Of a stretch of DNA of 64,000 nt, positions 5,989-59,624 are shown piece after piece. The notes beneath the pieces are model-generated. The model did not search any database and was not told the origin of the DNA. It worked only from the letters and a program-made list of their open reading frames with translations. This stretch comes from Acidobacteriota bacterium (lineage in GTDB: Bacteria > Acidobacteriota > UBA6911 > RPQK01 > JAJDTT01). The stretch is from positions 5,504,001 through 5,568,000 of the forward strand of contig OZ242374.1 in the NCBI GenBank assembly GCA_965209055.1. The letters are read 5' to 3'. The stretch's first letter is position 1. Every line of letters begins with the position of its first letter. The position numbers and the translations under genes were made by a program.

Positions 5989-5994
5989 TTCGGG

Positions 5995-9907: not shown

Positions 9908-11233
<1,326 letters not shown>

Positions 11234-39579: not shown

Positions 39580-39683
39580 GTGGCTATTCAAGCACAAGCA
39601 ACCGTCGAGAAAAAGGGGCCTGAGACGGGATCGGGACGCACCCGCCGAGCGAAACCCGAAGTGAAGAATGAGGAATATCCTAA

Positions 39684-42304: not shown

Positions 42305-45300
42305 TTAGTTACGGGGGCTCCCGCCCTTCACCGGAGCAGCGATCAGAGTCGGAGGTTCCGGTTCCTGCACGGGGGGGCGCCCCAGGAGCCACCGGGCGGC
42401 TCGTCCCAGGTCCTCCAGAATCATGTAGGTGCACGGCACCAGAACCAGGATGACCGGAGACGAGAACACGACGCCGAACGCCAGGGAAACCGCCATGGGA
42501 ATCAGGAACTGGGCCTGGAGGCTCGTTTCCATGAGCAATGGGGTCAGGCCGGCGAAAGTGGTCACCGAGGTGAGGAATATGGGTCGGAACCGAGCCGACC
42601 CGGCCGTCAGGATCGACTCCTGGAGAGGGACTCCGGCACGCCGTTGCCGGTTGACGTAATCGACCAGGATCAGGCTGTCGTTCACCACCACTCCCGCCAG
42701 GGCCACGATTCCGAATATCGAGAGGATGCTCAGATCCATACCCAGGATCCTGTGTCCCCAAAAGGCGCCCACCAGGCCGAAGGGAATTGCGCTCATGATG
42801 AGCAGGGGCTGGAAATAGGACCGGAGAGGTATGGCCAACAATCCGAATATGGCAGCCAGCGCTATGCCGAAGCCTTGGAGCAGGCCGTCGATCGTCTCGC
42901 TTTGCTGTTCCTGCTCGCCCTCCAGCGAATAGGTCAGGCCTGGAAACTGCCGCAACATGGAGGGAAGGTAGCCGCTCTCCAGTTCCGCCAGGATCTCGTT
43001 GGAGTTGGCCCGTTGAGTGTCCACTTCCGCAGTCACGCTGACGGAGCGATTCCGGTCCACCCGGCGGATGGTTGCAAAGCCGCGGCTCAGCTCCGAATCG
43101 GCCACCACCGAAAAAGGAACCTCTCCGCCCTCCGGAGTCCGGATCCGCATCTCCTCCATCTGCCCCAGGGAACGGCGCCGGTCCGAGGGGTACCGGACCA
43201 TGATCTTGACCTCGTCACGGCCCCGCTGAATCCGCTGGACCTCTTCTCCGTAGAAGGCTTGCCGAATCTGTCTAGCCAGGTCCGCCTGCGTCAGGCCCAG
43301 GGATTCGGCGGCTGGACGAATCTTGAGCTTGACCTCCTGCTTTCCGGCCCGGAAGGAATCGGCGATGTCGTAGACCCCGGCATATTCGTTCAATTTCAGC
43401 TTGAACCGGCGCGCGGCCTCCTGCAGTTGGTCCAGGTCGGGGCCGGAGAACTGAACGTTGATGGGAGCCCCCGCGGCGAAGATCGAGGCCGAGTAGGTGA
43501 GTTCCACGGCATCCGGGATGGTCCCCGTCAGTTCCCGCCAGCGGTTGGCGATCTCGGTGCTGCTGATGAGTCTGCCGTCTCGTGCCCGGGGCCGTTCCTC
43601 GGACGGCGCCAATTCGATGTTCACCGATCCCAGGTGTGCACCGCTAAACTGGGACACGTTTCCGCTTTGCCGGTTTTGAAGGACCCGGGCGGGTTGTTCC
43701 CCTACGGAAGCCAGCACGTGGCGGAAGACGCTGGCCGAGCCGCCTCCCTGGCTGGGAGAGTCGAGCTCCTCCCGAAGCAGCAATGCGGCCCGCTCCACTC
43801 TCTGCAAGGCGCGGCCCGTGACCTCGGCCGAAGTGCCCTGAGGCATGGTCAGGAAGGCCATGACGTTGTCCGCCTCCACCGGAGGGAAGAAATTGAACTT
43901 GATTCTTCCGCCCAGAATCAGGCCGACGACCATTACCAGGGTGGCAACGCCCAGGGCCGCCGTCAGATAGCGCCACTCGACGGCCACGCGCAGGAACGGT
44001 TCGTAGACTCGCTTGACGAATCGTTTGAGCTGGCGCGAGATCAGGTCCTGGAAGCGGTTCCACAACCCGGACAATCCCCGTTTCCGCAGCCTCTCGGAGC
44101 GTCTCAGGTGGGAGAGGTGATGGGGCAGGATGAGCAGGGACTCGACCAGTGAAAAGACCAGTGTGGGCAGGACCACCAGCGGAATGACCCGCATGATCTT
44201 CCCGGTGGAGCCTTCGATCATCAGCATCGGAGAGAAAGCGGCTACCGTGGTCGCCACCGCAAAGAACACGGGAATCATCATCTCCTGTGTCCCATCGATG
44301 ACCGCCCGCAGCTTGGGCTTCCCCTGTTCGTATTGGGAAAAGATGTTCTCGCCGACGACGATGGCGTCGTCCACCACGATTCCCAGCACGACGATGAAGG
44401 CGAACAGGGAGATCAGGCTGATGGAGACGTCCAGAAGGGGCAATGCCAGCAGGCAGCCCATAAACGAAATGGGGATGCCCAGGCTGACCCAGAACGCCAG
44501 GCCGACCCTCAGAAACAACGTCAGAGTCAGAACGACCAGCGCCAACCCAGCCAAACCGTTCTTGATCAGCAAGTTGAGCCGGCTCCGCAGGATGCGGGAG
44601 TCGTCCTTCCAAGTGGTCAGCGTCAGGCCTTCCGGCAACTGGAGCTGTTTCTGCTTGACGTACTCCCGCACGGCGGCGGCAATCTCCAGAGCGCTCTGCC
44701 TCCCGACCCGGAAGACCTGGACCAGGATGGCCGGCTGACCGTCGAACCGGGCCACCTGGTCGGTCTCGGCGAATCCGTCCACGACCCGGGCGACGTCTCC
44801 CAGCAGGACCCGCGTGCCGTCCGGTCGCGAGAGCAGAGTCAACTGCCGGAATTCCTCCCCCACGTAGGCCTGACTCTTGGTTCTCAGCAGGATCTCACCC
44901 GCTTCGGTCCTCACCGAGCCCCCGGGCAGGTCGAGGGAGGATCGGCGGACGGCCCGCGCCACCTCATCGAAGGTCAGACCGTGGCGGAGCAGGGCGTCCT
45001 CCGAAACTTCGATGGAGACTTCATAGGGGCGGGCGCTGGAAAGCTCAACCTGGGTGATCCCGGGCAGAGAGGCGACCTCATCCCGAACCTGCTCGGCGAC
45101 CCGCTTGAGGGTCCGTTCGTCGGCTGGTCCCGAGACGGCTATGTTAATGACCTGGTTGCGGACGATGAACTCCTGGATGACCGGCTGTTCGGCCTCCTCC
45201 GGAAAGGTGCTGATGGCGTCCACACGGCCCTTGACGTCGTCCAGAAGTTCCCGGGCGTCGGTTCCCTCCAGGATTGCCACGTTCACGATGCCCATGCCCT

Positions 45301-45559
45301 CGGAAGCCGTCGACGTGACCTGCTTGACCCCGGCAAGGCTTTGAACGGACTCCTCGATCCGGATACAGATTCCCTCCTCGACCTCCTCCGGCGCAGCGCC
45401 CGGATAGGCCACCGACACGCTGATCAGGTCCGTGGAGAACTCCGGGAAGACCTCTTTTCGAATCTCGGTAATGGAGAGGGCGCCGCCCACCAGGATCACG
45501 ACCATCAACAGGTTGGCCACGACCCCGTTGGATGCGAACCAGGCGACGAGTCCCTTCAT
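42305..45559 (-). CDS. RND efflux permease (AcrB-like), resident operon
   Basis: NGVVANLLM, GIVVDDAIVVGENI, RFRPIFLTS; start ATG 45559 with upstream GAGGTG. Confidence 0.92.
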   Translation of the reverse strand: MKGLVAWFASNGVVANLLMVVILVGGALSITEIRKEVFPEFSTDLISVSVAYPGAAPEEVEEGICIRIEESVQSLAGVKQVTSTASEGMGIVNVAILEGTDARELLDDVKGRVDAISTFPEEAEQPVIQEFIVRNQVINIAVSGPADERTLKRVAEQVRDEVASLPGITQVELSSARPYEVSIEVSEDALLRHGLTFDEVARAVRRSSLDLPGGSVRTEAGEILLRTKSQAYVGEEFRQLTLLSRPDGTRVLLGDVARVVDGFAETDQVARFDGQPAILVQVFRVGRQSALEIAAAVREYVKQKQLQLPEGLTLTTWKDDSRILRSRLNLLIKNGLAGLALVVLTLTLFLRVGLAFWVSLGIPISFMGCLLALPLLDVSISLISLFAFIVVLGIVVDDAIVVGENIFSQYEQGKPKLRAVIDGTQEMMIPVFFAVATTVAAFSPMLMIEGSTGKIMRVIPLVVLPTLVFSLVESLLILPHHLSHLRRSERLRKRGLSGLWNRFQDLISRQLKRFVKRVYEPFLRVAVEWRYLTAALGVATLVMVVGLILGGRIKFNFFPPVEADNVMAFLTMPQGTSAEVTGRALQRVERAALLLREELDSPSQGGGSASVFRHVLASVGEQPARVLQNRQSGNVSQFSGAHLGSVNIELAPSEERPRARDGRLISSTEIANRWRELTGTIPDAVELTYSASIFAAGAPINVQFSGPDLDQLQEAARRFKLKLNEYAGVYDIADSFRAGKQEVKLKIRPAAESLGLTQADLARQIRQAFYGEEVQRIQRGRDEVKIMVRYPSDRRRSLGQMEEMRIRTPEGGEVPFSVVADSELSRGFATIRRVDRNRSVSVTAEVDTQRANSNEILAELESGYLPSMLRQFPGLTYSLEGEQEQQSETIDGLLQGFGIALAAIFGLLAIPLRSYFQPLLIMSAIPFGLVGAFWGHRILGMDLSILSIFGIVALAGVVVNDSLILVDYVNRQRRAGVPLQESILTAGSARFRPIFLTSVTTFAGLTPLLMETSLQAQFLIPMAVSLAFGVVFSSPVILVLVPCTYMILEDLGRAARWLLGRPPVQEPEPPTLIAAPVKGGSPRN

Positions 45560-45563
45560 GGTG
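45549..45563. repeat. Left copy of the direct repeat flanking the insert
   Basis: AGTCCCTTCATGGTG; 13/15 identical to 56314-56328, exact core TCATGGTG. Confidence 0.7.
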
Positions 45564-45934
45564 ACACCTCGGAGCCGGAATCCGACTGAATCTGGTCCGC
45601 CACGCCGCCGGTAAGGGGCGCTGGAGTTTCGAGTTGTCGCGCCTTCACGAAGCGAAGACTCCCTTTGCCTGGCCGCAATGCACATCCAATCGTCCCGAAT
45701 CGAATTCGTTGCCTCCGATTCGTGACCACCATGGCGTTTGCTCCGATTTCGATATTCTACCTGTTTGCAGACGATGAGGGGTCGGGGGCTTGAGGCGCCC
45801 AACGCCGACGGCGCAAGGGCCGGCGCGGGCAGAGCCGGCAGACGCGTCGCCCCGGAATCTTGGAATCGGACGGCTCCGTCCCCGGGGAGAACACCGTTTC
45901 GGATCGCCGCCGGCGAAATGGCGACGGCTGTCGA

Positions 45935-47005
45935 CTATGGATTGACCGGACGCTGGTTGCGCTGGACGCCGCCGTCCCGGGGTTCCGGATAGAACTGCTT
46001 GCAATAGCGTCGAAAGGTTCCGATCTCGCCGTCGGACCGGCACAGTCTGGGGCGGGACAGGTACCGCTTCCGGCTCCAGATCTCCACATCCTGCAGCACG
46101 TCCCGCTTTTGTTGCCACAACATGAACCGGTTCATGAATTTGTTGCGCAGGCCCGGAGGAAGGAAACTCAGGCCCATGATCGGCCGTTTCGGTTTCCGCA
46201 TTTCCCGCACCTGCGCGGCGAGCACGACCTCGACAAACTTCCCGTCAACGGGCGTTGCGAGTACCCACAGGCGCATGTCCAGGGGGACGGATCGCTCGCG
46301 GATCTCGACGAACGAGTAGCCCAGTCCAAAGATGCGGGTGAAGGCGGAAATATCGACCGACATGTCCATGATCCCGCCAATGGTCTGGACCCGCTTGAAG
46401 TCAAAGTGGCCTTCGAGACAGGCGCCGTCGACGGTCACCCGCCCGATTCGGCTGACATTGTCATAGCCGTGCACGTACCGCAGGTGCGCCAAGTCCACGG
46501 CGTTCTCCGTCGTTTCCTGGGGATGGCCGGGAAACCGGACGGTCCGGAAGCCCAATTCGCTCCAGTCCGCTCCCGACGGCGGATCCTCGGGAAGGCTCCA
46601 TTGCGGCGGACGTCCGTCGATGCCCCACCAGGCGAACACCATGCCGAGAACCTCACGGATCTCGAATACCTTCAGCTTCGCGGCCTTCGGCGGCGGCGCA
46701 AAGGGAGTCGCGACACATTGGCCGCCGGCGTCGAACTCGTAGCCGTGAAACGGACAGACGAGACAGCCGTCGCGTACCCGGCCTCCGGCATCGGGCCCCA
46801 ATTCGGCCCCCAGGTGCGGACAGACCGCCTCGGCCACGCAGACGCGTCCTTCACCGTCGCACCAGGCGACGATTTCCTCGCCCATCCAGGTCTTCTGGAT
46901 CAGCTTTGCCCTGAGAATGGCCTCACGGCTGGAAACGAAGTACCAACCCTCGGGAAACGGAAGCAGCGAGGAGGCTTTGTCAGGCTCGAAATGTCGTTTT
47001 GCCAT
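45935..47005 (-). CDS. Rieske non-heme iron oxygenase, KshA/Neverland (cholesterol 7-desaturase)-like
   Basis: FPEGWY, CPHLGA...CPFHG Rieske ligands, ENAVDLAHLRYVH iron motif, C-terminal QDVEIW.RK.Y...P.L...DG....RR...QFY. Confidence 0.82.
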   Translation of the reverse strand: MAKRHFEPDKASSLLPFPEGWYFVSSREAILRAKLIQKTWMGEEIVAWCDGEGRVCVAEAVCPHLGAELGPDAGGRVRDGCLVCPFHGYEFDAGGQCVATPFAPPPKAAKLKVFEIREVLGMVFAWWGIDGRPPQWSLPEDPPSGADWSELGFRTVRFPGHPQETTENAVDLAHLRYVHGYDNVSRIGRVTVDGACLEGHFDFKRVQTIGGIMDMSVDISAFTRIFGLGYSFVEIRERSVPLDMRLWVLATPVDGKFVEVVLAAQVREMRKPKRPIMGLSFLPPGLRNKFMNRFMLWQQKRDVLQDVEIWSRKRYLSRPRLCRSDGEIGTFRRYCKQFYPEPRDGGVQRNQRPVNP

Positions 47006-47402
47006 TTTCCACCGAAGTTTCGTCGTCTGATGGCACCGATAGCCTCCAAGCCAAGTGGGAGAAAACGAAGCTACAATTCCATTCTATCCGTCATCGACGA
47101 CCCCATTTTTACTTCGGCCCGGTGACGCATCACACGCGGCTCGCAAATCTCCTGTCGCGACCCAGGCGATTTCACGTGGACCGAACCTCAGACTTGTCTA
47201 GGCAGCCATTTTTGCCAATGGTAGGATATAACGTCCTTTTTGCCGGAATTTAGTCACAGGCTTCTGCTTGCCTCAGTTCATGGATTCCCTCAAATCAGCC
47301 GTCCTCTTACAGCGTGCCTGTCGGCCGGCGAGACCTGGGATCAGCTTCGCGAAGCGGCCGGCGAATTCCCGGGCCGGGTCAGCTTCCGGCGGGTAGATCA
47401 CC

Positions 47403-48611
47403 ATGAGGAAGATACTCGGCTACCTGGTTGCGGTTGCCATTCTTGCAGGCTCCGTCTACCTGGCCTATTACCTGGTGTCGCTGGCGCCCGAACCGGAACG
47501 CACCGAGCCGCCTCCCCAGATTCCCTTTGCCCAGACCGGCCGGGTTGCGGCCGGCACCGGAGCCATCCCCGTCTATGGCGCCGGCACCGTACGGCCCAGC
47601 GCGGAAGTCGACATCGCTCCGCTCGTCAGCGGCAGCGTCGTCTGGTTGGAACCGGGTTTCCAGAGCGGCGGGCGGATCGAGTCCGGTCAGCCGATCCTGC
47701 GTATCGACAACGCCGACTATCTGCAACGCCTGCGCGAGGCGGAGGCCGAGCTCGAAGCCCGTCGGGTGGCCCTCGATTTGGCCCGGGAAAAAGGGACGTT
47801 CGCCCGCGCCGAATTCGAGGAGTACTCGCGCCAGCAACTCGAGGCGGGAGCTCCGGTGGGCGAACCGGGGCCCTTGGCGTTGGGGGAACCGGAAATCAAG
47901 GCGGCTCGGGCCGCGCTGCACCGTGTGGAGGTCCAGATCGCCGGCGCCGAGCTGGCCCTGTCCCGAACCGAACTGCGGGCGCCGTTTGACGGCTATGTGC
48001 GCAACGAATCGGTGGATACCGGGCAGTTCGTGTCCGCAGGCCAGACCGTTGGGCGGCTGATGGCGGCCGAGGCCGTCGAGGTGGCCGTGCCCCTGTCCGA
48101 CGCCAACGCCGCCATGATTCCAGGGCTTTGGAAGCTTCGCGCGGGAGACGCCGAACGGCGGGTGGCCGCCCGGGTGACCGCCAGGTTCGACGACGCCAGC
48201 TATGTTTGGAAGGGCTATGTCGACCGGGCTGAAGTCTCAGTCGACGAGCAGACGCGAACCATCGACGCGATTGTACGGGTGCCCAACCCTTTTTCGGCGG
48301 GTGTTCCGGCGGACGGGTCCGGCGATGCACCCCCGCTCCTGGTAGGCAAGTTCGTGGAGGTAAAGATTCAAGGTCTTGTACCGGAGAGCTATTTCCGGGT
48401 GCCGCGGGCTGCACTGCAAACCGGCGACGAGGTCTGGACAGTTGGTGAAGACCAGACGGTGAGTATTGTCCCGGTCCGCGTCTTGCAGCGGGCCAACGAC
48501 GAAGCCGTGGTGGTCGGCGCCCTGGAAGACGGGCAGTTGGCCATCACAGGCGGCATTCAATTCGTCACCGAAGGCATGGTGGTACAAACAGCGGCCGGTT
48601 CGGCGGAATGA
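47403..48611 (+). CDS. RND efflux membrane fusion protein (islet)
   Basis: N-terminal TM, lipoyl-like halves, RAPFDG, VD.QTRT, GKFVEV. Confidence 0.88.
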   Translation: MRKILGYLVAVAILAGSVYLAYYLVSLAPEPERTEPPPQIPFAQTGRVAAGTGAIPVYGAGTVRPSAEVDIAPLVSGSVVWLEPGFQSGGRIESGQPILRIDNADYLQRLREAEAELEARRVALDLAREKGTFARAEFEEYSRQQLEAGAPVGEPGPLALGEPEIKAARAALHRVEVQIAGAELALSRTELRAPFDGYVRNESVDTGQFVSAGQTVGRLMAAEAVEVAVPLSDANAAMIPGLWKLRAGDAERRVAARVTARFDDASYVWKGYVDRAEVSVDEQTRTIDAIVRVPNPFSAGVPADGSGDAPPLLVGKFVEVKIQGLVPESYFRVPRAALQTGDEVWTVGEDQTVSIVPVRVLQRANDEAVVVGALEDGQLAITGGIQFVTEGMVVQTAAGSAE

Positions 48612-51600
48612 GCCAAAACGAACAACAACCGGCGGAACCCGGCGGGCCAATCGCCTATATGGCGGGCAGCAGCGTCGCGGCCAACCTGCTGATGTTCGGC
48701 ATCCTCGCTGCGGGCCTCGTGTCTCTGACCGGCCTCGAGCAGGAAGCGTGGCCCGAGGTGCCCTTCTATCAGTTCGAAATCTCCGTGACGCTCCCTGGGG
48801 CAACGCCCGACGAGGTGGAGGAGGCCATCGTCGTCAAGATCGAGGATGAGGTCCGTGGACTGGCGGACGTGAAGGCGGTCAGGTCCGTAGCGGCCCCGGG
48901 AATGGCGTCCGTCAGGGTCGAATTCAGATCGGGTACGGACATGGGCGCGAAGAGGGATGAAATCGAGTCGGCGGTCGGGCGTATTCAGACGTTCCCGGGC
49001 GGAGCCGAGCGGCCCCGAATCCGGGAAATGACCAACGCCCAGAGCATGATGCGCCTCATCCTCTACGGCGACGTTCCCGAGCGCTCGCTGAAAGAACTCG
49101 CCTATCGTATCGAGGACGATCTCGCTTCCCTCCCGAACGTGTCCCAGGTCGAGACCAACGGTGTGCGCAACTACGAGATCTCCATCGAAGTGCCACTGCG
49201 GTGGCTACGGGCCGTTGGGCTAACTCTGACCGATGTCGCCAATACGATTCGTCGCGGTTCGCTGGACCTGTCTGCGGGCAGCATCAATACCGAGCAGTCC
49301 CAGGTGCGGATTCGGACCCTCGGTCAGAGCTACGATCAGCAGGATTTCGAGGAGATCGTCATCCTCGGCCGCGACGACGGCACAGCGGTGCGCTTGGGTG
49401 ATATTGCCGAGGTGCGCGACAGCTTCGAGGACTCGGATTTGATCGTGCGGCACCAGGGCCATCCCGCCGTGTTCGTTGAGGTTTCGCGAGCCGACGGCGA
49501 GAGGGTGATGGATGTGGCGCGCGCCGTTCGGGACCATGTTGCGAACGAGATAGCGCCCTCGCTCCCCGACGGCGTGGGCATCACTATCTGGAGCGACGAC
49601 TCTTCGGTATTCGTGGAGCGGGGCCTCCTTCTCCTCAAAAACGGATCCTTGGGGTTGTTGCTGGTCTTGTTCGCGCTTGGCCTTTTTCTCGAAGTCCGGT
49701 TGGCGTTTTGGGTCGCCGTCGGTCTCGGCGTTTCCGCGATCGGCGCCCTGGCCGCCATGATGATGTTCGACATCCCGCTCCATGAGATTTCGCTCTTCGC
49801 TTTCGTGCTCGCCATCGGAATCATCGTAGACGATGCGATCGTCGTGTCCGAGCACATTCACCTGGAGCGAATGCGCGGCACGCCGGGGGTTGTCGCGGCG
49901 ATCCGGGGTGCGCGACGAATCAAGGTGCCACTGATCTTCGCCGTGCTGACTACGGTCGTGGCGTTCGTTCCGCTGCTCTTCATACCCGCGGGCTTCGGAG
50001 AGGTCTGGAAGGCACTGCCCATCGTCGTCATTGCCACGCTGCTGTTTTCGCTGGTCGAATCGCTGCTGGTGCTGCCCAACCATCTGTCCCATCATCTGCA
50101 CGGCCCGGATTGGGTGCCCGGCACGAGCATCGAACGATTCGTCTCCCGGATCCAGAATCGTGTCGATTCCTGGTTGAACAGCTTTGTACAGGGGCCCCTG
50201 GATCGTGGGATACAGTTCGCGACGGACTGGCCTGAGGTGACGGTCTCGGGGGCGGTCGCGCTGCTCATCCTGAGCATTTCCCTCATTCCGGCCGGCATCG
50301 TCCCCACCACCTTCGCAACAGCGGTCGAAGGCGACTTCGCAATCGCCACCCTCGAGATGCCGGACGGAACGACCGCGGAGCAGACGTACGCAGTGGCGCA
50401 ACAGCTGGAATCAGCCGGTCGCCGGGCCATCGAGCGGCTTTCTGAAGGCCGGCCCGCGGATGCGCCTCCTCTGCTGTCCGGAGTTACAGTCGTCGTCGGT
50501 CAGCGTTCGCGGATCGAAACCGGGGGCCTCAATCCCTCGCCCACCCTGAACCCGGAAGCCAATGTCGCCACCATCGAGTTCAAGCTCCTGGGCGCGCAGC
50601 AACGGCGCATCACTTCGGGAGAAGTCGTGCAGGCATGGCGCGAGGAGGTGGGTGTCCTGCCTCATGCGCGCGCGGTCACCTACATCAGTGAGATCTACAC
50701 ACTGGGCAACCCGGTCGAGGTCGCGCTGTCCCACCCGGATCCGGAACGCCTGGTCGAGATCGCATCTTCCGCAGTCGCTGGCCTTGGCGGAGTCGGAGGC
50801 GTCTTCGACATACGCTCTGATCACACTCGCAGTATCCCGGAAGTTCAGGTGGGATTGCGTCCCGAAGCGCGCACCCTCGGCCTCACGCTTGATGATCTTG
50901 CCGGGCAGACGAGAGCCGCCTTCTTTGGCGTGGAGGCCGTGCGGGTGCAGCGAGGACGTGAAGAAGTTCGGGTTTATGTGCGGCTACCCGAGGAGCAGCG
51001 TAATGCGATCACCGACGTCGAGAGATACTGGCTCCGTACGCCAACCGGTGCCGACGTGCCGTTAAGCCGCGTGGCTTCGCTGAGTTCTGGCACATCGCCG
51101 CCGGCCATCCGGCGCCAAGACGGCCATCGCATTGTCACGGTTTCCGCTGATGTGGATGCCAGTGTGATTTCCGCCGCGACCGCCAATGACATTCTGGAGA
51201 ACACTATCCTCGCGGAACTCATCGAGGAAAACCCGGAACTCACGTACACCTTCGGAGGTGAACAGCAGCAGCAGCTCGACTCTTTGGGCGGTCTCTTCCG
51301 CGGATTCGTGATCGCGTTGCTCATGATCTTCGCGCTGCTGGCCATTCCGTTGCGCTCCTACACCAAACCGTTCATCATCATGGCCATCATCCCGTTTGGG
51401 TTCATCGGCGTGATCCTGGGTCACTGGGTCCTGGGGGTGGCGTTGAGCGCGGAATCCTTTGTCGGGATATTCGGCCTCGCCGGCGTGGTGGTGAACGATT
51501 CCCTGGTGATGATCGATTTTATCGATCAGAAGCTCAGGGAAAACACTCCGGTGCGAACCGCGATCATCGAGGGTGCGAAGGGACGATTTCGCCCGATCAT

Positions 51601-51787
51601 GCTGACTTCCTTGACCACCTTCCTCGGCTTCACCCCCCTTATTCTCGAAGACGCCATTCAGGCGCAGTTCTTTGTTCCCTTCGCCGCCTCGATCGGCTGC
51701 GGCATCCTCTTCACCACGACAATCATCATGTTTCTGGTGCCGGCGCTTTCCTCGTTCCATCTGCGCCTGACCTCGACGCGGGGCTGA
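48608..51787 (+). CDS. RND permease (AcrB-like, islet)
   Basis: VAANLLM, GIIVDDAIVVSEHI, RFRPIMLTS; ATGA overlap with the MFP. Confidence 0.92.
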   Translation: MSQNEQQPAEPGGPIAYMAGSSVAANLLMFGILAAGLVSLTGLEQEAWPEVPFYQFEISVTLPGATPDEVEEAIVVKIEDEVRGLADVKAVRSVAAPGMASVRVEFRSGTDMGAKRDEIESAVGRIQTFPGGAERPRIREMTNAQSMMRLILYGDVPERSLKELAYRIEDDLASLPNVSQVETNGVRNYEISIEVPLRWLRAVGLTLTDVANTIRRGSLDLSAGSINTEQSQVRIRTLGQSYDQQDFEEIVILGRDDGTAVRLGDIAEVRDSFEDSDLIVRHQGHPAVFVEVSRADGERVMDVARAVRDHVANEIAPSLPDGVGITIWSDDSSVFVERGLLLLKNGSLGLLLVLFALGLFLEVRLAFWVAVGLGVSAIGALAAMMMFDIPLHEISLFAFVLAIGIIVDDAIVVSEHIHLERMRGTPGVVAAIRGARRIKVPLIFAVLTTVVAFVPLLFIPAGFGEVWKALPIVVIATLLFSLVESLLVLPNHLSHHLHGPDWVPGTSIERFVSRIQNRVDSWLNSFVQGPLDRGIQFATDWPEVTVSGAVALLILSISLIPAGIVPTTFATAVEGDFAIATLEMPDGTTAEQTYAVAQQLESAGRRAIERLSEGRPADAPPLLSGVTVVVGQRSRIETGGLNPSPTLNPEANVATIEFKLLGAQQRRITSGEVVQAWREEVGVLPHARAVTYISEIYTLGNPVEVALSHPDPERLVEIASSAVAGLGGVGGVFDIRSDHTRSIPEVQVGLRPEARTLGLTLDDLAGQTRAAFFGVEAVRVQRGREEVRVYVRLPEEQRNAITDVERYWLRTPTGADVPLSRVASLSSGTSPPAIRRQDGHRIVTVSADVDASVISAATANDILENTILAELIEENPELTYTFGGEQQQQLDSLGGLFRGFVIALLMIFALLAIPLRSYTKPFIIMAIIPFGFIGVILGHWVLGVALSAESFVGIFGLAGVVVNDSLVMIDFIDQKLRENTPVRTAIIEGAKGRFRPIMLTSLTTFLGFTPLILEDAIQAQFFVPFAASIGCGILFTTTIIMFLVPALSSFHLRLTSTRG

Positions 51788-52005
51788 CGGCCGGTGGGGA
51801 AAGTGGCGCGCGCACCGAGGCCACACCGGAAGAACTGGCCTGCGAGGTTCCCGGTTGACAGGGCGAGTGGGGGAGGAGCGCCCACCGGAAGATCGGCCCG
51901 GGCGTAATCCAACCGAAACTCAACGATGGGAGCTGCGAAGCGACGCGTTCTCGCCGGGATGCATCACCCGTCGAATGCCACACTACCGTGTCTGCAGGCC
52001 GCCAA

Positions 52006-53058
52006 TTACCCCCGAAGAGGCCGCCGCGCCACGAAACAGTAGAGCGGTGTGAAAATACCGGCCCTGCCCCCGGCAACATAGGCGTTTGCGGTCCGATCCA
52101 GTAGCCCGACGACCTCCGTCGAGCCTTTCGGGAACGTACCGAGAAACTCGGCCATCCTGGATCCCCTCCTCACAACCTTGCGACCCATCGGGGTCCGGCG
52201 TAAAGCGCCGCCGAGCAGTCCGCCCCGGGTTTCCATGGGCTGATACCACGGCCTGACCGGACCGTGCTGGTCGCTGGCGAGGTCCAACCCTTCCATGACT
52301 TCGAATCCCGCGGTTTCGAGCGCCCGGTTGACCTCCCGGAACGTCGCGATTTCCTTGAGCGCGATGCCGTGCATGAGTTCTCGCTTGATGGCGCGATGCC
52401 GATCGTCGCCGGGATCGAACAGGTCCGTCATGCACATTTCCTGGCCCCAGAAGAGAGCTCCGGGTTTCAGGACACGGTAGATTTCGGCGAACGCAGCCAC
52501 CTTGTCGGCCGCGTGGCAGGTCGATTCGATCGCGTAGCCACGATCAAACGTCTTGTCCTTGATGGCGCTCATCTCCATGAAGCTGCACACCTGGCAGTCG
52601 GTCATGTGATCGAGCCCCGCAGCGGCGTTCAGCCGCTGGGCGTTGTTGCACTGGACTTCACTGACGTTGATTCCGACGACCCTTACATCGGCCTCGCGGG
52701 CGACCCGGCGCATCGGACCGCCGATCCCGCAGCCGATGTCGACTACCGTCATGCCCGGGCGCAGTTCGAGCTTGGAGATCATGAGTCGCTGGTGCCGGAT
52801 CTTGGAGTCCTCCAAGCTCTCGCCAGACGACAGCGGCGCGAAGTGCAGGGATTCTCCCCAACCGAAGACCATGAACTCGCTGCAAAGGTCGTAGTATTCC
52901 TTCACGGTCAGCGTGTGGTCGTAGAGCGCTTCGGAATCCTGGCGGGACTCCCTGTCGGTCCATCCTTCGAAGTCGTGCACGCGGCGGACGACGTTCGACC
53001 CGTCGAATGCGGCCTTCAGCGCATTGGATAGTTCGCGGAATCGCCTCACGGGCCTCAA
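52006..53058 (-). CDS. Sterol 24-C-methyltransferase (ERG6/SMT)-like
   Basis: YYDL...GWGESLHFAP, DIGCGIGGPMR, YAIESTCHA, EIYRVLKPG, C-terminal GG..GIFTP; likely TTG start 53058 after GGAGAG. Confidence 0.85.
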   Translation of the reverse strand: MRPVRRFRELSNALKAAFDGSNVVRRVHDFEGWTDRESRQDSEALYDHTLTVKEYYDLCSEFMVFGWGESLHFAPLSSGESLEDSKIRHQRLMISKLELRPGMTVVDIGCGIGGPMRRVAREADVRVVGINVSEVQCNNAQRLNAAAGLDHMTDCQVCSFMEMSAIKDKTFDRGYAIESTCHAADKVAAFAEIYRVLKPGALFWGQEMCMTDLFDPGDDRHRAIKRELMHGIALKEIATFREVNRALETAGFEVMEGLDLASDQHGPVRPWYQPMETRGGLLGGALRRTPMGRKVVRRGSRMAEFLGTFPKGSTEVVGLLDRTANAYVAGGRAGIFTPLYCFVARRPLRG

Positions 53059-53349
53059 GGCAGGCTCTCCAGTCGATCCAAGACGGCTAGGCGGGCAAGT
53101 GACGTGCTTACCCCGCATAGCTCAGCAAAGGGCGTGGCATGGGGCATGAAATCGTAGTAACAAGTTTGTTATTAGCAATTTACATGCTGGCCAACAATAC
53201 ACCCTGTGCCCCCACACTGTATCACAGCCGATCTCCCCAATCAGGCACCAAAGTTGGTGAATCATGCAGGCTGGCCCTTCCCCGGGGGACTTGGAATCGT
53301 AGCGCATGAACCAGGCAGGGACTTCCGGCAGCGGCGCGGAGGATTGCCT

Positions 53350-53544
53350 GCGGTCTCGGATCGGGTTTGTGACCTCAGCAACGCGGAACTTCAGCTTCTT
53401 GCCGGGATCAGCTGTCGGAAATGGATTGATGACGGGCTTGTGGTCTTTCGGCAATACTTCCAGCTTCAGGTGGTGCGCGATAAGCAGGAGATTGACGCCC
53501 AACTGAAGCTCCACCCGCCGATTCCCCAGGCACATGTGCGTGCC
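53350..53544 (-). pseudogene. C-terminal remnant of a second cytochrome P450
   Basis: GTHMCLG..VELQ..VNLLLIAHH...INPFPTA.P.KKLK.RV..VTNP parallels the C-terminus of 54122..56236. Confidence 0.8.
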
Positions 53545-53605
53545 TGGCACCCAATAACACTTAAAGGTGCGGATACAGACTCTTCAGCTTGGTCCGTGCA
53601 TCGCC

Positions 53606-54172
53606 TTCACCTTCGGAGGCGAACAGCAGCACCAGTTGGAGTCTCTGGACGCTCTCTACCGCAGCTTCGTGCTCGCCATGCTGGCGATTTTCGCGCTCCT
53701 TGCCCTTTCCCAGGGTTCCTATGTCAGACCGTTCCTCGTGATGGCCATCATTCCCTTCGGCCTGGTCGGCGTGGTCCTAGGCCACTACGTGTTGGGAGTC
53801 CCCATCAGTGCGGCATCGTTCATGGGCTTCTTCGGGCTCAGCGGCGTCACCATCAACGACTCGCTGGTCAGGAAGAATCTCATCGATCAGCGCCGCCGGG
53901 AGGGCTCCGATGGTAAGACTGCAATCATCGATGGCGCCAAGGGACGCTTCCGGCCCATCATCCTGACCTCGGTGACGACCTTTCTCGGCTTCACGCCCCT
54001 CATTCTCGAACGGGCCATCCAGGCGCAATTCCTGGTCCCCTTCGCCGCATCCCTCGGGGTCGGGATCATGATTACGACCGGGATCTTGTTGTTGCTTGTG
54101 CCGGCGCTGCTGGCCGTCAATCTACGCGCGAATTCCCGTCACCGGGCAGCGGGGGCCGTTCCGGTTCCCTAG
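53606..54172 (+). pseudogene. C-terminal remnant of a second islet-type RND permease
   Basis: FTFGGEQQ.QL...GAKGRFRPIILTS...AIQAQFLVPFAAS parallels the last ~180 aa of 48608..51787. Confidence 0.85.
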
Positions 54173-56236
54173 CCCGTCCGGTTCCTGCGGCGGTGCCGGC
54201 GCGTGCTTTCTTGCAGAGACCGGATTCGTGACTCTAACGACGCGGAGCTTGAGCTTCTTGTTGGGGGCGGCGGTCGGGAACGGATTGATGCCGAGCTTAT
54301 AGCTTGCCGGAGACACTTTCAGGTTCACGTGGTATGCGATGAGCAGAAGATTGACGGCCATCTGAAGCTCCACCCACGGCCGCCCCAAGCAGACGTGCGT
54401 ACCCAGGCCATAGGGAGCGTAGGCCCCCGGCTGCAAATGCTCTGCCCGATCCGGCAGGTATCGGTCGATGTCGAATTTCAGCGGATCCTTGAACAAGTCG
54501 CCGGAGTAGTGTGACGCGGTCTGAGAGATCAGAAGCCGCGTCCCGGGAGGTATCTCGAAGCCACTGACGATGCACGGGTTCATGACTGTTCTCAACTGCC
54601 ACGGAATCACGGGATACAGGCGTCCGGTTTCCAGCAGGAGCCGCTGTGTGACGTCGATGGTTTCGCGAGTGAAGTCCTCCGGCTTCGGTTCACGCCCGTC
54701 ACCAAAAAGCGCCTCGGCTTCTCGACGGATCCCCGAGTACACATCCGGGTTTCGAACCATGCAATAGACGGCGAAGCCGAGCGCGCTCCCCAGGTAGATA
54801 CTGGCGACCATCGCCGCGACGAACGGAAAGGTGAGGTCCGTTTCGGGCAGGAACTGCGGGTCGTTTCGATGGAGTTCGAGGATGGCATCGGCAATATCCA
54901 GTGGCTTCCCCTTCCTCTGCGCCGGGGTGTGCGATGCGATGATCTCCTCTTGGAGTTGAACGACCCTCTGGGCCCCCTGCTTCATCCTGGGCGTGGACAG
55001 CATGAATTTCGGCAACAGGCCCTGAACCCCAATGACCAGCGCACGATGTTCGTACTCAAGCAGTTCGTCGACGTAGTGGCTGCAATCCACTCCCATCGTC
55101 AGGCTCGAGACCTGACGGCTGATATGGGTCTGGAGGGTCCCGGTTGCGCGGAAAACGTCGCCTTCGTTCCAGGAGCCGATCGATTGCCGGCAATGGTGGA
55201 TCAACTCCGGAAGCCGCCGTGCAAGCGTGGCACGGGAATAGGCACCGTGCAGGGACTTGCGCATCTTGAAGTGTTCGGCGCCATCCATGCCGGGAAGTGT
55301 TCGGGACGCGCCGAACAAACGCTCCAGCCCCTCGATGTAGTCCTTCGACCGGAGATAGAATCGGCCGTGCCGGTTGACCCACTGATTCGTGTCCGGCCCC
55401 ATCAAGGCGACGACGGGTTGCTTGTTCATCTTGAAGGGAACCCGGACGACCGGTCCGTGCTTCCGGAAGATTTCGTGCATCGCCTTGGCCATATTCCCGG
55501 AACGGAAGTCACGCACCCGCAGGAGGTCGACGATCCCGAGCTTCGGAATCGGTTTGGCTTGGAGAACCCGGCGGGTCTTCGGGTTGACGCTGCTCTGCTT
55601 CACCGCCTCGGCAACCGACCGCCCCACCAGATCCAACTGGGCGATGATCTCGATCCGATTGAGCTTTTCCTCGTAGTCTTCGGGCGAAAGCACCAGCTTG
55701 AATCCGTCGCAGGTATGCATCAATGCAACGAGAATGGCGTCGTGGGGATCCGGAATGGCGTCGGTCAAGATGGCGTCCAGGACTCTTGCCCTGGCTTCCT
55801 GACGGATCTTGTTGTCGGACGCCGAATAGCTTCCCGAGCGCGAAACGTCGCGCGAGAGCATCCAGAATCCGCCGCTTCGATACTCGAGAATTCCCCTCTC
55901 CACCAAGCGGTCCAGCGTGGCCGTTACGATTTCCTCGGAACGGGCCGCGTTCCGTTCAATCCAATACTGTGCCTCGAAGAGTTCCTTGGACTCGGCGATT
56001 TCGCTGAGCGTCGGATCGAGCAGGTTGTCTCCCGTTGGAGTCGAATCTGTGATGTACAGCACTTGCAGATCGGTGTCGATGCGATTTGCCAGCGCGAGAT
56101 CTGCGATTACGGCGCCCGCCATGACGCAGGAGAAGTTCCAGCCTGGAACCATCTCCAAATAGCCGCTCCGTTCGTTGAGCATCAGGAGGATCAGTTCTTC
56201 GGAAAGGCGAATTGGGATCTCGTCGACTTTGTTCAT
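54122..56236 (-). CDS. GOLPH3/GPP34-domain-cytochrome P450 fusion protein
   Basis: N-terminal ~210 aa GPP34 pattern (LSEELILL, AGAVIADLAL..RI, PTGD.LLD, LVERGIL); P450 ETGR (ExxR), FDIDRY, heme motif YGLGTHVCLG. Confidence 0.82.
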   Translation of the reverse strand: MNKVDEIPIRLSEELILLMLNERSGYLEMVPGWNFSCVMAGAVIADLALANRIDTDLQVLYITDSTPTGDNLLDPTLSEIAESKELFEAQYWIERNAARSEEIVTATLDRLVERGILEYRSGGFWMLSRDVSRSGSYSASDNKIRQEARARVLDAILTDAIPDPHDAILVALMHTCDGFKLVLSPEDYEEKLNRIEIIAQLDLVGRSVAEAVKQSSVNPKTRRVLQAKPIPKLGIVDLLRVRDFRSGNMAKAMHEIFRKHGPVVRVPFKMNKQPVVALMGPDTNQWVNRHGRFYLRSKDYIEGLERLFGASRTLPGMDGAEHFKMRKSLHGAYSRATLARRLPELIHHCRQSIGSWNEGDVFRATGTLQTHISRQVSSLTMGVDCSHYVDELLEYEHRALVIGVQGLLPKFMLSTPRMKQGAQRVVQLQEEIIASHTPAQRKGKPLDIADAILELHRNDPQFLPETDLTFPFVAAMVASIYLGSALGFAVYCMVRNPDVYSGIRREAEALFGDGREPKPEDFTRETIDVTQRLLLETGRLYPVIPWQLRTVMNPCIVSGFEIPPGTRLLISQTASHYSGDLFKDPLKFDIDRYLPDRAEHLQPGAYAPYGLGTHVCLGRPWVELQMAVNLLLIAYHVNLKVSPASYKLGINPFPTAAPNKKLKLRVVRVTNPVSARKHAPAPPQEPDGLGNRNGPRCPVTGIRA

Positions 56237-56313: not shown

Positions 56314-56328
56314 AGCCCCGTCATGGTG
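56314..56328. repeat. Right copy of the direct repeat flanking the insert
   Basis: AGCCCCGTCATGGTG, includes the MFP stop codon. Confidence 0.7.
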
Positions 56329-57508
56329 CCTCCTGGGGGCTGGAATCCTGCTGAACCTGGACCTTCATGCCGTCGACGACCGTGGTCAGCGTGGCCAGAG
56401 AGACCAGTTCACCCTCCTTGAGACCGGAATCGATGAGCACTCTCTCCCGTTCCAGGCGCACGACGTTGACGCGGCGGAAACGGAGCTTGGATTCCGGGTC
56501 CACGACCAGCACCTGGTCCTCGCCTCGAAGGGCCGCCCGGGGCAACGCGACGACATCCCGCATCAAACGGCCCTGGATTTCAGCTTCCACGAACATGCCC
56601 ACGGCGAGAGGGGGACGATCCGGATCGGGCCCCCGGCCATAAGGATCGGCAACCTGCGCGATGGCGTGGATCATCCGGGTCTGAGGATCGATGGTCCCAT
56701 CGGTCCGCACGATTCTCCCGGCCCAGGAGTGGTTCCGCTGGCCGAACTCGGACCGCAACCGGACGACGGGTTGGCGCTTCTGCGAGGCGTCGCCGCGGTA
56801 GCTGAGGGGCAGATCCACATACGCCAGCTCCTCGTCGGGAAGCGGTAGCCGAATCTCCGCATAGTCCACGGAATAGATGGTGGCCATGGGAGTCCCCGGG
56901 GTCACGTATTGCCCGATATCCACGTTTTTTCGAAGGACCCGCCCCGCGAACGGAGCGCTGATCCGGGTCTTTTCCAGGTTCCGTTCGGCCTGGGCCAAAG
57001 CGGCCTGAGCGGATGACAGTGCGGCCCGGGCCCGGGCGATCTGGGGCACTCGCCGCAACAGGGGACTGGCCTCCCCTTTTCCCAGACTCTGCCACTCCTT
57101 CCGGGCGACCTCGGCCTGCGCCTCTTCCGTCTCCAGGGAGAGTTGCGCCTGCGCGATCTGGGCTTCGGCCTGAACCACCTGGAGTTGGTAGTCCGTGGAG
57201 TCGATCCTGAGAAGTTCAGCGCCCGCCTCGAAGAAGCCCCCGTCCGCGAGAGAGGGGGAGACTTGCAGGACCCGGCCCGCTATCTCGGGGAACAACGTGG
57301 TCTGGGTTCGAGGAGCCACAGTCCCCTGGGACCTGACCGTCAGGCGGAGTGTTTGAAGCTCTGCGGGAACGGCTCGGATCACCGGAACCGGAACCTCCGG
57401 AGGTCGAGTCTCGACCACAGGCCGATCATTGAATATCTTCCAGGCCCACGCCGAGGCAACCGCCAAAGTCGCCACGGGCAGCAATACCTTCAGCAGAAGC
57501 TTGATCAA
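56321..57508 (-). CDS. RND efflux membrane fusion protein (resident operon)
   Basis: SQGTV.P, ISAPFAG, ID.QTRM, VGMFVEA; TTGA overlap with the OMF. Confidence 0.9.
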   Translation of the reverse strand: MIKLLLKVLLPVATLAVASAWAWKIFNDRPVVETRPPEVPVPVIRAVPAELQTLRLTVRSQGTVAPRTQTTLFPEIAGRVLQVSPSLADGGFFEAGAELLRIDSTDYQLQVVQAEAQIAQAQLSLETEEAQAEVARKEWQSLGKGEASPLLRRVPQIARARAALSSAQAALAQAERNLEKTRISAPFAGRVLRKNVDIGQYVTPGTPMATIYSVDYAEIRLPLPDEELAYVDLPLSYRGDASQKRQPVVRLRSEFGQRNHSWAGRIVRTDGTIDPQTRMIHAIAQVADPYGRGPDPDRPPLAVGMFVEAEIQGRLMRDVVALPRAALRGEDQVLVVDPESKLRFRRVNVVRLERERVLIDSGLKEGELVSLATLTTVVDGMKVQVQQDSSPQEAP

Positions 57509-58971: not shown

Positions 58972-59624
58972 CTGCAGTTTTCCCGTGATGGAATCGGAGT
59001 CCGAAAGCCGGCTGCCAGAAACGAAACCAGTCGGTCGACGACCTCGTCCACCTGGGACGGTTCCGGAACATCCAGAAAAAGGTTCTCCAGATTCTTCCAG
59101 TCGGCGATCACGTGAAGCGTATGGGACATGGCCCCTACCATGAAATGGAATCTCCAGAACGCTTCTTCCCTGGAAAGATGGGGCAGCCTTGGACCCAACG
59201 CGCCGGAAAAACGCTCGATCACTTCGGCGAACTGTCCATAAATCATCTCCCGAATCGCTCCGTCGGGCGAGTTGAAGGCCCGGGAGAGAAGCTGCATGAA
59301 ACGCATGCCGCCCCTCTCCGGATCCCGGATCAGTTGTACCGGAGGTCGTACGAACGCCTCCAGGATCTGTTCCAGGGAGGGCTCCCCCGCACCGCCGCCT
59401 GCCTGGCAACGGTCCAGGAGCGCCAGGCGCTGCCGATTGAGAGGAGACAGCCGAAGGGCGAAGAGTTCCTGGATCAGTTGATCCTTGGAACCGAAATGAT
59501 AGTGCATGGCGGCCAGATTCACTTTGGCCCGGGAGGTGATCATCCGAACCGAGGTCGCAGAGAATCCCCGATCCGCAAAGAGCCCTTCCGCCGCATTCAG
59601 GATCCTGGACCTGGTGGCCAGCAT
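58968..59624 (-). CDS. TetR/AcrR family transcriptional regulator
   Basis: TRSRILNAAEGLFA..GF..TSVR.I...A.VNLAAMHYHFGSK HTH. Confidence 0.92.
   Translation of the reverse strand: MLATRSRILNAAEGLFADRGFSATSVRMITSRAKVNLAAMHYHFGSKDQLIQELFALRLSPLNRQRLALLDRCQAGGGAGEPSLEQILEAFVRPPVQLIRDPERGGMRFMQLLSRAFNSPDGAIREMIYGQFAEVIERFSGALGPRLPHLSREEAFWRFHFMVGAMSHTLHVIADWKNLENLFLDVPEPSQVDEVVDRLVSFLAAGFRTPIPSRENCR

Follow-up and report, generated by a model that had tools for sequence, protein, structure and literature searches.

Introduction

Fusions of a GPP34 (GOLPH3) domain with a cytochrome P450 (P450) have been described, in the main text of a study from 2025, as a group of 656 proteins exclusive to sponge symbionts, with binding of phosphatidylinositol 4-phosphate (PI4P) proposed as a means against phagocytosis (PMC11706023, Microbiome 2025). 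Here, we analysed the surroundings of one such gene in a stretch of 64,000 nucleotides from an Acidobacteriota bacterium (assembly GCA_965209055.1, contig OZ242374.1, positions 5,504,001 to 5,568,000 of the forward strand), referred to as the window. In this window the fusion gene stands together with genes for a C-methyltransferase of the sterol methyltransferase (SMT) family, a KshA-like Rieske oxygenase and an AcrB-type permease of the RND (resistance-nodulation-division) superfamily with its periplasmic adaptor. The genes recur as a linked unit in several phyla, and we give about an even chance to the explanation that they form a horizontally exchanged sterol-tailoring and export cassette of sponge-associated bacteria.

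The window protein is a member of the published long form (GPP34_L), with which it shares the two-domain architecture, the host phyla and the sponge habitat. However, the words sterol, methyltransferase and efflux are absent from the main text of PMC11706023, whereas here the fusion gene has those for an SMT, a Rieske oxygenase and an RND pump as linked neighbours. Likewise, the SMTs of sponge symbionts (Brown et al. 2023, PMC10070321; Ircinia, PMC9531527) have the SMT family, the Sterol_MT_C domain, the origin and the horizontal spread in common with the cassette enzyme, as far as the main texts describe them. According to PMC10070321, 8 of 10 such enzymes methylated desmosterol in vitro, and an active SMT was found in a metagenome-assembled genome (MAG) of Chlamydiae without a sterol pathway, for which methylation of acquired sterols is raised. 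The published clusters combine the SMT with a cyclase, CYP51, ERG24 and sdmA/sdmB, which points to de novo synthesis; in contrast, the window cassette combines an SMT carrying Met81 and Leu89 with a GPP34-P450, a KshA-like Rieske protein and an AcrB-type pump, mostly in cyclase-free genomes. P450, Rieske proteins and transporters go unmentioned in the main texts of both papers.

The closest described Rieske system is KshA, which has the Rieske and KshA_C domains in common with the window protein and aligns with it over nearly the full length, yet at a score of 90.7 bits. Moreover, KshA works with KshB and in ring degradation; the cassette has neither nearby, and its setting is one of tailoring and export. 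For the pump, BstABC and HpnN may be compared, as they also belong to the RND superfamily and are proposed, in the portions of PMC10942540 at hand, to move polycyclic triterpenoids towards the outer membrane. BstA, as classed there, and HpnN are MMPL proteins (PF03176) with no AcrA-type adaptor, whereas the permease of the cassette, RND2, is of the AcrB family (it matches PF00873 and not PF03176) and comes with an adaptor of its own. Elsewhere, the window genome also contains an MMPL gene resembling BstA/HpnN.

Results

Composition of the cassette

A preliminary description drawn from the letters of the window had proposed an undescribed cassette for sterol remodelling and transport. To characterise the locus, open reading frames (ORFs) were picked on length and codon-position G+C, and 57 window ORFs were compared with Pfam. 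All five gene types that the description had named were found where it had placed them:

54122-56236, minus strand: GPP34(GOLPH3)-cytochrome P450 fusion, 704 aa in one frame (Pfam GPP34 118.1 bits, P450 122 bits)
52006-53118, minus strand: SMT-family C-methyltransferase, cassette subtype (Sterol_MT_C 59.6 bits, cut-off 21.7, residues 306-367; Methyltransf_11 59.9 bits)
48608-51787, plus strand: AcrB-type RND permease RND2 (ACR_tran 520 bits)
47403-48611, plus strand: periplasmic adaptor MFP2, HlyD-type (TIGR01730 145.5 bits, cut-off 94.9)
45935-47005, minus strand: KshA-like Rieske non-heme iron oxygenase, 356 aa (Rieske 56.8 bits, KshA_C 91.9 bits)

The G+C content of the window is 63%, and that at third codon positions of the five genes (0.76-0.78) is of the coding type. 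The end of MFP2 overlaps the start of RND2 by 4 nucleotides; this plus-strand pair converges on the minus-strand methyltransferase gene, and the Rieske gene diverges from MFP2. The term undescribed holds for the linkage of fusion, SMT, Rieske and pump genes, which was not found in print in full-text searches and the main texts of the closest papers, but not for the fusion (2025, PMC11706023) or the SMTs of sponge symbionts (2023, PMC10070321). Thus, the individual parts are known, and what is new is the cassette, its prevalence in cyclase-free genomes, the distinct SMT subtype and the reinterpretation of GPP34.

The cassette genes are linked across phyla

One genome per species was scanned with the fusion, which yielded 23 loci, all from MAGs. 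The identity of the fusion to the window protein varies with the group:

Acidobacteriota/Aminicenantes: 74-95%
Bryobacterales: 76-78%
Rhodothermales: 72%
Pseudomonadales/Gammaproteobacteria: 67-72%
Azotimanducaceae (L023): 60%, GPP34 part only
Nitrospirales: 48%

Linkage was counted by tblastn of the window proteins against the 23 loci, at a distance of at most 10 kb from the fusion gene:

RND2 and MFP2: 16 of 23 loci
Rieske gene: 12 of 23 loci
methyltransferase: 10 of 23 loci

RND2 and MFP2 are thus present in 16 of the 19 loci having at least 5 kb downstream, and four of the seven loci lacking RND2 end at most 1.4 kb from the fusion gene or hold 5.8 kb only. In Pseudomonadales, fusion, RND2 and SMT follow each other on one strand, with 4 nucleotides from RND2 to the SMT gene. 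Clustering of all locus ORFs revealed no further family conserved in the 23 loci. Genome-wide, a Sterol_MT_C gene is present in 17 of 23 cassette genomes and in none of 14 control genomes, and a close relative of the Rieske protein is found full-length in 16 of the 23 and partially in two more. Among 60 relatives of the window genome, the fusion is present in 6 of 8 genomes of the same genus and absent from all 52 genomes that belong to other genera of the order.

Taken together, the cassette genes show conserved linkage across phyla, and since the grouping recurs in this manner it goes far beyond chance. The co-occurrence elsewhere that the preliminary description had called for is therefore given, and the genes behave as a recurrent unit.

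The window genome lacks squalene cyclisation

In line with the preliminary description, the 57 window ORFs contain no squalene epoxidase, cyclase or steroid ring-degradation gene by Pfam. The window genome consists of one contig of 6.08 Mb and is 98.4% complete. Genome-wide, the best match to PF13243 (cyclase C-domain) reaches 26.8 bits, and PF13249 (cyclase N-domain) and PF08491 (squalene epoxidase) are without a match; there is likewise no SdmA-like gene in this genome. A search for ERG4/24 gave no match in the genome but carries no information, since its control matched nowhere either. De novo synthesis of sterols or hopanoids by the window genome was rejected on the absence of cyclase and epoxidase. 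Since squalene cyclisation is beyond this genome, a sterol substrate of whatever kind has to be acquired from outside.

A cyclase match of at least 160 bits occurs in 4 of the 23 other cassette genomes (G004, G005, G008 and G018). With 17 genomes having Sterol_MT_C and four having a cyclase, at least 13 genomes have an SMT without a cyclase. Several of the SMT-bearing, cyclase-free cassette genomes are single-chromosome assemblies. In the Pseudomonadales genome G008 (G008:C1:179310-180023) we observed a frame of 1144 aa with a cyclase domain, which may be an epoxidase-cyclase fusion of the kind found in G018.

The cassette adjoins a sterol cluster in a Nitrospirales genome

In the Nitrospirales genome G018, a stretch with a sterol cluster is contiguous with the cassette locus L022 (1457 identical nucleotides). 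The cluster comprises:

a canonical SMT and a second SMT-like gene
a gene of the 3-beta-hydroxysteroid dehydrogenase/epimerase family
a Rieske/VanA_C gene with a full-length match of 410.6 bits to the SdmA model
ERG4/ERG24
a P450 gene with a full-length match to M. capsulatus CYP51 (347 bits)
L039:16514-19972, plus strand: one frame of 1152 aa in which squalene epoxidase (FAD_binding_3 and SE) is fused to the two oxidosqualene/squalene-hopene cyclase domains

An MMPL transporter, a KshA-like Rieske protein, an SMT of the cassette type with 71% identity and the GPP34-P450 with 48% are encoded within the next ~10 kb. Both SMTs of the sterol cluster read TDF[Y/W]E[F/Y]GWGQSFHF, that is, a canonical Region I. 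The cassette enzymes of G018 therefore add to the pathway's own Rieske, P450 and SMT genes and are not substitutes for them. A sterol substrate is favoured because they stand beside the enzymes of the sterol pathway and not instead of them.

The methyltransferase is a distinct SMT subtype

SMT homologues are 345-355 aa long, and the real start of the cassette SMT is probably ~15-20 codons downstream of the listed one. In yeast numbering, Region I (GWGxxFHF, sterol-binding) spans positions 84-91 and Region II (DxGxGxxGP) positions 125-133, and 25 residues are conserved across all SMTs found active (preprint 10.64898/2025.12.19.695621). The cassette enzyme has the SAM-binding Region II as DIGCGIGGP (residues 127-135), which fits the consensus, and retains H90, D125, G129, P133, E195 and G217; residues were mapped by hand from motif offsets and not from the authors' alignment. 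Judged by its residues, it is a distinct SMT subtype with an altered Region I (Met81, Leu89). Leu89, within GWG..LHF, is present in 105 of the 120 closest homologue clusters, the remaining 15 being unmatched by the search pattern GWG...HF.

The Rieske oxygenase is KshA-like

The best solved relative of the Rieske protein is KshA (E 9.6e-25, residues 14-344). The ligands of the Rieske cluster are found in CPHLG (62-66) and CPFHG (84-88). In addition, the protein carries E-x3-D-x2-H-x4-H (ENAVDLAHLRYVH, residues 167-179), which we take to be a form of the mononuclear iron motif, so that its metal ligands are complete. Names given to its relatives in the Protein Atlas, such as 'cholesterol 7-desaturase', are automatic labels at family level and serve as leads only. 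An identity with SdmA was rejected: the protein scores 29.6 bits on NF052579, in the Rieske domain only, at a cut-off of 600; the full-length SdmA-like genes of G018 and G008 score 410.6 and 408.6 bits with this model.

The GPP34-P450 fusion and its paralogues

In the fusion, GPP34 covers approximately residues 11-214 and P450 approximately residues 239-652 (Pfam). All of more than 120 relative clusters with at least 69% identity have the same two domains. ExxR (536-539) and the heme Cys616 are invariant in the family alignment, and the FDIDRY stretch is kept. The AlphaFold2 model has a pLDDT of 76.7 and a pTM of 0.73, and solved P450 relatives are distant (at most 21% identity).

Human GOLPH3 matches the GPP34 domain at E 9.5e-8. 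In the human protein PI4P is contacted by W81, R90, R171 and R174, as stated in the available part of PMC3596250. In a pairwise alignment of moderate confidence, W81 is kept in the fusion, and R90, R171 and R174 are replaced by A, E and V; among 16 aligned family members the latter three positions are never basic. No signal peptide is evident in the fusion protein by eye. Because three of the four PI4P residues are lost, a signal peptide is not evident and the gene is linked in operons to cytoplasmic enzymes and a pump, the GPP34 domain more likely anchors the P450 on the bacterium's own membrane; a secreted PI4P-binding effector appears unlikely.

The window genome encodes two more GPP34-P450 proteins, 33-35% identical to the cassette copy:

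G000:C1:362788-364722 (L029), minus strand: GPP34-P450 paralogue
G000:C1:2846636-2848663 (L030), plus strand: GPP34-P450 paralogue

One is followed after 13 nucleotides by a sulfotransferase gene, the other by a gene for a membrane acyltransferase (Acyl_transf_3). As each paralogue is thus paired with a group-transfer enzyme, the arrangement fits an oxidation followed by derivatisation of a lipid alcohol. In the six other fusion-bearing genomes of the genus no additional paralogue was found at E 1e-30 or better, each giving a single match.

Further variants of the fusion gene were noted. In L014 (10001-12013) and L020 (10001-12055) the span translated by tblastn contains a stop codon, which a frameshift, decay to a pseudogene or coordinates that run too far could explain. 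In the Azotimanducaceae MAG locus L023 (10001-10597, 5200-5853), the GPP34 part alone was matched (residues 9-209, 60% identity), possibly a short form that lacks the P450; 4 kb from this match lies a KshA-like Rieske gene.

The pump operon and joint transfer of SMT and RND2

Pfam and NCBIfam searches revealed a second set of transport genes that the preliminary description had overlooked:

58968-59624, minus strand: TetR-family regulator, first gene of the pump operon on this strand (Pfam TetR_N 56 bits, TetR_C_30 109 bits)
57505-c.58950, minus strand: outer-membrane factor of the NodT/TolC type (Pfam OEP 102.9 bits; TIGR01845 264.6 bits, cut-off 210); its start is approximate, as the listed ORF extends to 59673 and the family match begins at residue 242
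56321-57508, minus strand: periplasmic adaptor MFP1 (TIGR01730 159.8 bits, cut-off 94.9; HlyD_3 match)
53567-54172, plus strand: remnant of an RND gene, C-terminal 200 aa (ACR_tran profile positions 838-1017 of 1021)
42305-45802, minus strand: second AcrB-type RND permease, RND1 (ACR_tran 543.6 bits)

MFP1 shares 4 nucleotides with the end of the outer-membrane factor gene, and the TetR gene is kept upstream of the latter in L001, L002, L007 and L008 (87-97% identity, tblastn). RND1 lies 132 nucleotides downstream of the Rieske gene, a succession also found in L002-L004, L007 and L008. Hence, the parts of a tripartite pump of the AcrAB-TolC type, an AcrB-family permease, an adjacent adaptor and an outer-membrane factor, are all present, and the gene order suggests that RND1 likely partners MFP1 and the outer-membrane factor. 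This pump operon encloses the cassette, between MFP1 and RND1, in the Acidobacteriota loci.

The RND remnant lies in the ~1-kb gap between the fusion and SMT genes. It is 85-90% identical to the C-terminus of the RND2 allele of the SMT-less congeners (L002-L004, L007), with 89.5% for L002-L004, and 65% to the intact RND2 of the window. The congener allele is itself 66-67% identical to the latter and directly abuts the fusion gene. Conversely, the RND2 protein of the window is 92% identical to a Bryobacterales copy, the flanking genes being at 70-76%. At the DNA level, positions 47370-53245 of the window (part of MFP2, RND2 and SMT) match the Bryobacterales locus at 89.1% identity along 5.9 kb, against 79.5% for the P450 gene and 76.8% for the Rieske gene. 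Taken together, these identities show that a block with SMT and RND2 displaced an older pump gene, methyltransferase and pump being transferred jointly. This speaks directly for selection acting on the two as one unit.

Occurrence in sponge metagenomes

The stretch spanning SMT and P450 was found in 20 of 22 listed sequencing runs from 10 studies, several of them labelled sponge metagenome, and DNA of the window occurs in runs with this label from at least four studies. One sponge run contains a contig of 3346 nucleotides with 39 differences across 52844-56188. The guess of a sponge habitat in the preliminary description is thus confirmed by the run labels, the titles of MAGs and the main text of PMC11706023. 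One RNA-library run contains contigs of 285-417 nucleotides, 92-95% identical, over the Rieske, MFP2, RND2, SMT, P450 and MFP1 genes. These contigs are no evidence of transcription, because they come from relatives, DNA may be present in the library and the depth of contigs gives no ranking of genes.

Discussion

A proposed sterol-tailoring and export cassette

According to the explanation to which we assign an even chance, the GPP34-P450, the SMT-family C-methyltransferase and the KshA-like Rieske oxygenase would act in the cytoplasm on a sterol held in the inner membrane, where GPP34 most likely keeps the P450. Since the genome lacks squalene epoxidase and triterpene cyclase, the sterol would most probably derive from the host or the surrounding community. 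The AcrB-type RND pump with its adaptor would then carry the product out of the inner membrane, either onto the cell surface or into the surroundings; in this lineage it would probably do so through the neighbouring TetR-controlled outer-membrane factor. Membership in the Sterol_MT_C and KshA_C families speaks for a sterol substrate. We infer the class of the substrate, the sequence of the reactions, in which direction transport runs, and what GPP34 does.

Several observations weigh against this explanation. The cassette SMT keeps 23 of the 25 residues of active SMTs, the exceptions being T78 (S) and F89 (L), and its Region I reads GWGESLHF and not GWGxxFHF, with M at the aromatic position 81. 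Leu89 is present in all 10 cassette-linked copies, where position 78 is S or H, and 4 of the 10 (gammaproteobacterial) also alter G86. Among SMTs that were inactive, 7 of 11 deviated at conserved residues; such deviating enzymes frequently showed no activity with desmosterol and 24-methylenecholesterol and might require different substrates (preprint 10.64898/2025.12.19.695621).

With respect to the P450, its I-helix (470-488) is without the acid-alcohol pair. The canonical P450 I-helix carries this pair. The helix reads ASIY-LGS, AAMY-AGT or AGHY-VGS in the cassette orthologues, the Nitrospirales (L022) orthologue and a more distant second copy in L009; at the same position the two paralogues of the window genome read GLDTT and GLHTA and thus keep the canonical motif. 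A fold search with the AlphaFold2 model returned CYP184A1, CYP46A1, BM3 and CYP3A4, all at ~E 1e-14, which is generic and gives no clue to the substrate. An identity with CYP51 was rejected, as M. capsulatus CYP51 is matched at 67 bits and in residues 377-652 only. On the evidence of sequence comparison, the P450 is close to no sterol P450 family.

Furthermore, no KshB-like reductase, ferredoxin or other redox partner forms a conserved family across the 23 loci or in the window. Within the own genus, the SMT is present in 2 of 7 cassette genomes, one of them the window genome, and the adjacency to a full sterol cluster was observed in a single one of the 23 genomes. Drug efflux is the typical role of AcrB-type pumps that have TetR regulators. 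Finally, the functions of the cassette enzymes are predicted from sequence. Hence, of the preliminary interpretation as a sterol cassette, the recurrent unit, the lack of own cyclisation and the adjacent sterol cluster in one genome speak for it, but its specific chemistry, namely C7 desaturation, C9 hydroxylation, C22 desaturation and ergosterol-like products, finds no support.

Alternative substrates and roles

The preliminary description had left out an endogenous substrate derived from squalene, the main rival account, which we consider unlikely though credible. The SMT-like enzyme would methylate the terminal isopropylidene group of squalene or a cleavage product, the P450 and the Rieske enzyme would oxidise it, and the pump would move it to the outer membrane. 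In fact, the window genome has HpnC (270.5 bits, cut-off 250.45), HpnD (310.9 bits, 278.6) and HpnE (388.6 bits, 283.05) and no cyclase, which also weighs against an imported sterol. These genes are followed by those for an MpaB/Lcp-type oxygenase, an MMPL/HAE3 transporter with a match to the sterol-sensing domain, a LolA-like protein and DUF1302. SQS_PSY is present in 21 and an MpaB-like gene in 19 of 23 cassette genomes. In L014 and L021, HpnD, LolA-like and MMPL genes stand beside the cassette (in L021 together with an MpaB-like gene), and in L022 MMPL alone does so; as such parts abut the cassette in some loci, an endogenous substrate is possible, a further point against the sterol explanation. 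In addition, the cassette SMT has a Region I with fewer aromatic residues than sterol-active SMTs, and a genome that makes squalene but no cyclase must have some use for it, so that a squalene methyltransferase related to SMTs is conceivable. The triterpene methyltransferases of Botryococcus, on which this account is modelled, are SMT homologues. In Botryococcus braunii these enzymes methylate squalene, and the products are later oxidised, according to the part of PMC3533583 at hand; however, they are eukaryotic and have no link to a pump.

On the other hand, SQS_PSY is also present in 8 of 14 control genomes, so that its co-occurrence says little. In the window genome the Hpn module is located 5.4 Mb away from the cassette and has its own transporter. 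Moreover, KshA_C-type Rieske enzymes of known function act on steroid rings, as judged by the Pfam name and PDB titles, and in G018 the cassette adjoins a complete sterol cluster and not an Hpn cluster. The Hpn module could equally feed squalene to a pathway shared by the community.

As a separate observation, the Hpn module is carried by a 15.5-kb inverted duplication (G000:C1:106500-122000 and 533000-548500; L035, L036) with 99.46% identity. The duplication is either real or an effect of assembly; the reported contamination of the genome is 7.4%.

Returning to the cassette, a generic detoxification of lipophilic sponge or microbial metabolites, in which P450 and Rieske enzyme oxidise, the methyltransferase conjugates and the TetR-controlled RND pump expels, so that sterols would not be special, strikes us as doubtful. 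The arrangement of TetR, outer-membrane factor, adaptor and RND genes is that of a typical drug pump, the Acidobacteriota cassette lies inside such an operon from MFP1 to RND1, the P450 falls in no sterol-specific family, and the paralogous fusions with sulfotransferase and acyltransferase resemble pairs of phase I and phase II enzymes. However, the absence of Sterol_MT_C from the 14 control genomes and the sterol cluster beside the cassette in G018 argue against it, and characterised Sterol_MT_C members act on sterols (PMC10070321, in its main text; preprint 10.64898/2025.12.19.695621). Besides, the three enzyme types remain associated in at least four phyla, as would suit a single defined substrate.

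A broader variant of the sterol explanation, which we regard as quite unlikely, envisages a sterol pathway divided into portable modules among sponge bacteria: squalene supply with MMPL, a core of epoxidase-cyclase, CYP51 and ERG24, and the tailoring and export cassette. The Met81/Leu89 SMT would then be a new regiospecific sterol alkylase, for example the missing C-26 methyltransferase, and bacteria that make no sterols would edit those of the host and pump them back. In this variant the P450, being without the acid-alcohol pair, might perform unusual chemistry, for example the rearrangement of a sterol peroxide.

Finally, it is very improbable that the GPP34-P450 is a eukaryote-like effector that binds host PI4P and serves escape from phagocytosis, with unrelated neighbours: GPP34 is the PI4P-binding fold of GOLPH3 and Vps74, and in the main text of PMC11706023 the long form is confined to sponge symbionts and GPP34 genes are expressed in the sponge, but three of four PI4P-contact residues are absent and never basic in the 16 aligned members (an alignment of moderate confidence), no signal peptide is seen by eye, and most loci have the fusion in operon linkage with a pump and with cytoplasmic enzymes dependent on SAM and redox.

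Neighbouring genes

Downstream of RND1, three minus-strand genes identified by Pfam and NCBIfam comparison represent a possible extension of the operon (37176-42298):

40874-42298, minus strand: 474-aa protein of no family, 6 nucleotides after RND1
37867-40776, minus strand: 969-aa GMC oxidoreductase, 97 nucleotides after the 474-aa gene
37176-37874, minus strand: gluconate-2-dehydrogenase subunit-3-like protein, overlapping the GMC oxidoreductase gene by 8 nucleotides

By ORF clustering of the 23 loci, the 474-aa gene alone was met again, in L002-L004. The first ~400 residues of the GMC oxidoreductase are without a Pfam family; the enzyme might act on a hydroxyl group of the pump substrate. 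The rest of the window is occupied by housekeeping genes (GlyRS, LeuRS, RecO, PPDK, Ddl, PhoH and others). Amid these lies a gene for myo-inositol-1-phosphate synthase (9908-11233, minus strand), which hints at inositol-containing lipids in a bacterium with three GPP34 domains. In addition, the minus-strand region 2706-7011 contains two ORFs of 549 and 556 aa with coding-type composition and no Pfam match, directly upstream of a radical SAM/SPASM gene (5995-7011).

Implications

The side-chain alkylated steranes 24-isopropylcholestane and 26-methylstigmastane serve as the oldest chemical evidence for animals. The argument hinges on which organisms are able to produce the parent sterols. With a mobile cassette, symbionts of many phyla may be able to alkylate sterols and export them although they synthesise none; if so, the bacterial contribution to these biomarkers would be wider than the few MAGs with complete pathways. 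The cassette SMT is a defined enzyme subtype and as such a candidate for alkylations that are still unassigned. Under the quite unlikely variant with portable modules, it could be the C-26 methyltransferase, or a different unusual side-chain methylase, behind sponge-specific sterols and fossil steranes. In the same vein, an AcrB-type pump would join the short list of bacterial sterol-handling transporters. Lastly, the GPP34-P450 fusions, which are among the most symbiont-specific proteins of sponge microbiomes, are recast as probable membrane-lipid enzymes and not host-cell effectors, and the two views predict different, testable outcomes.

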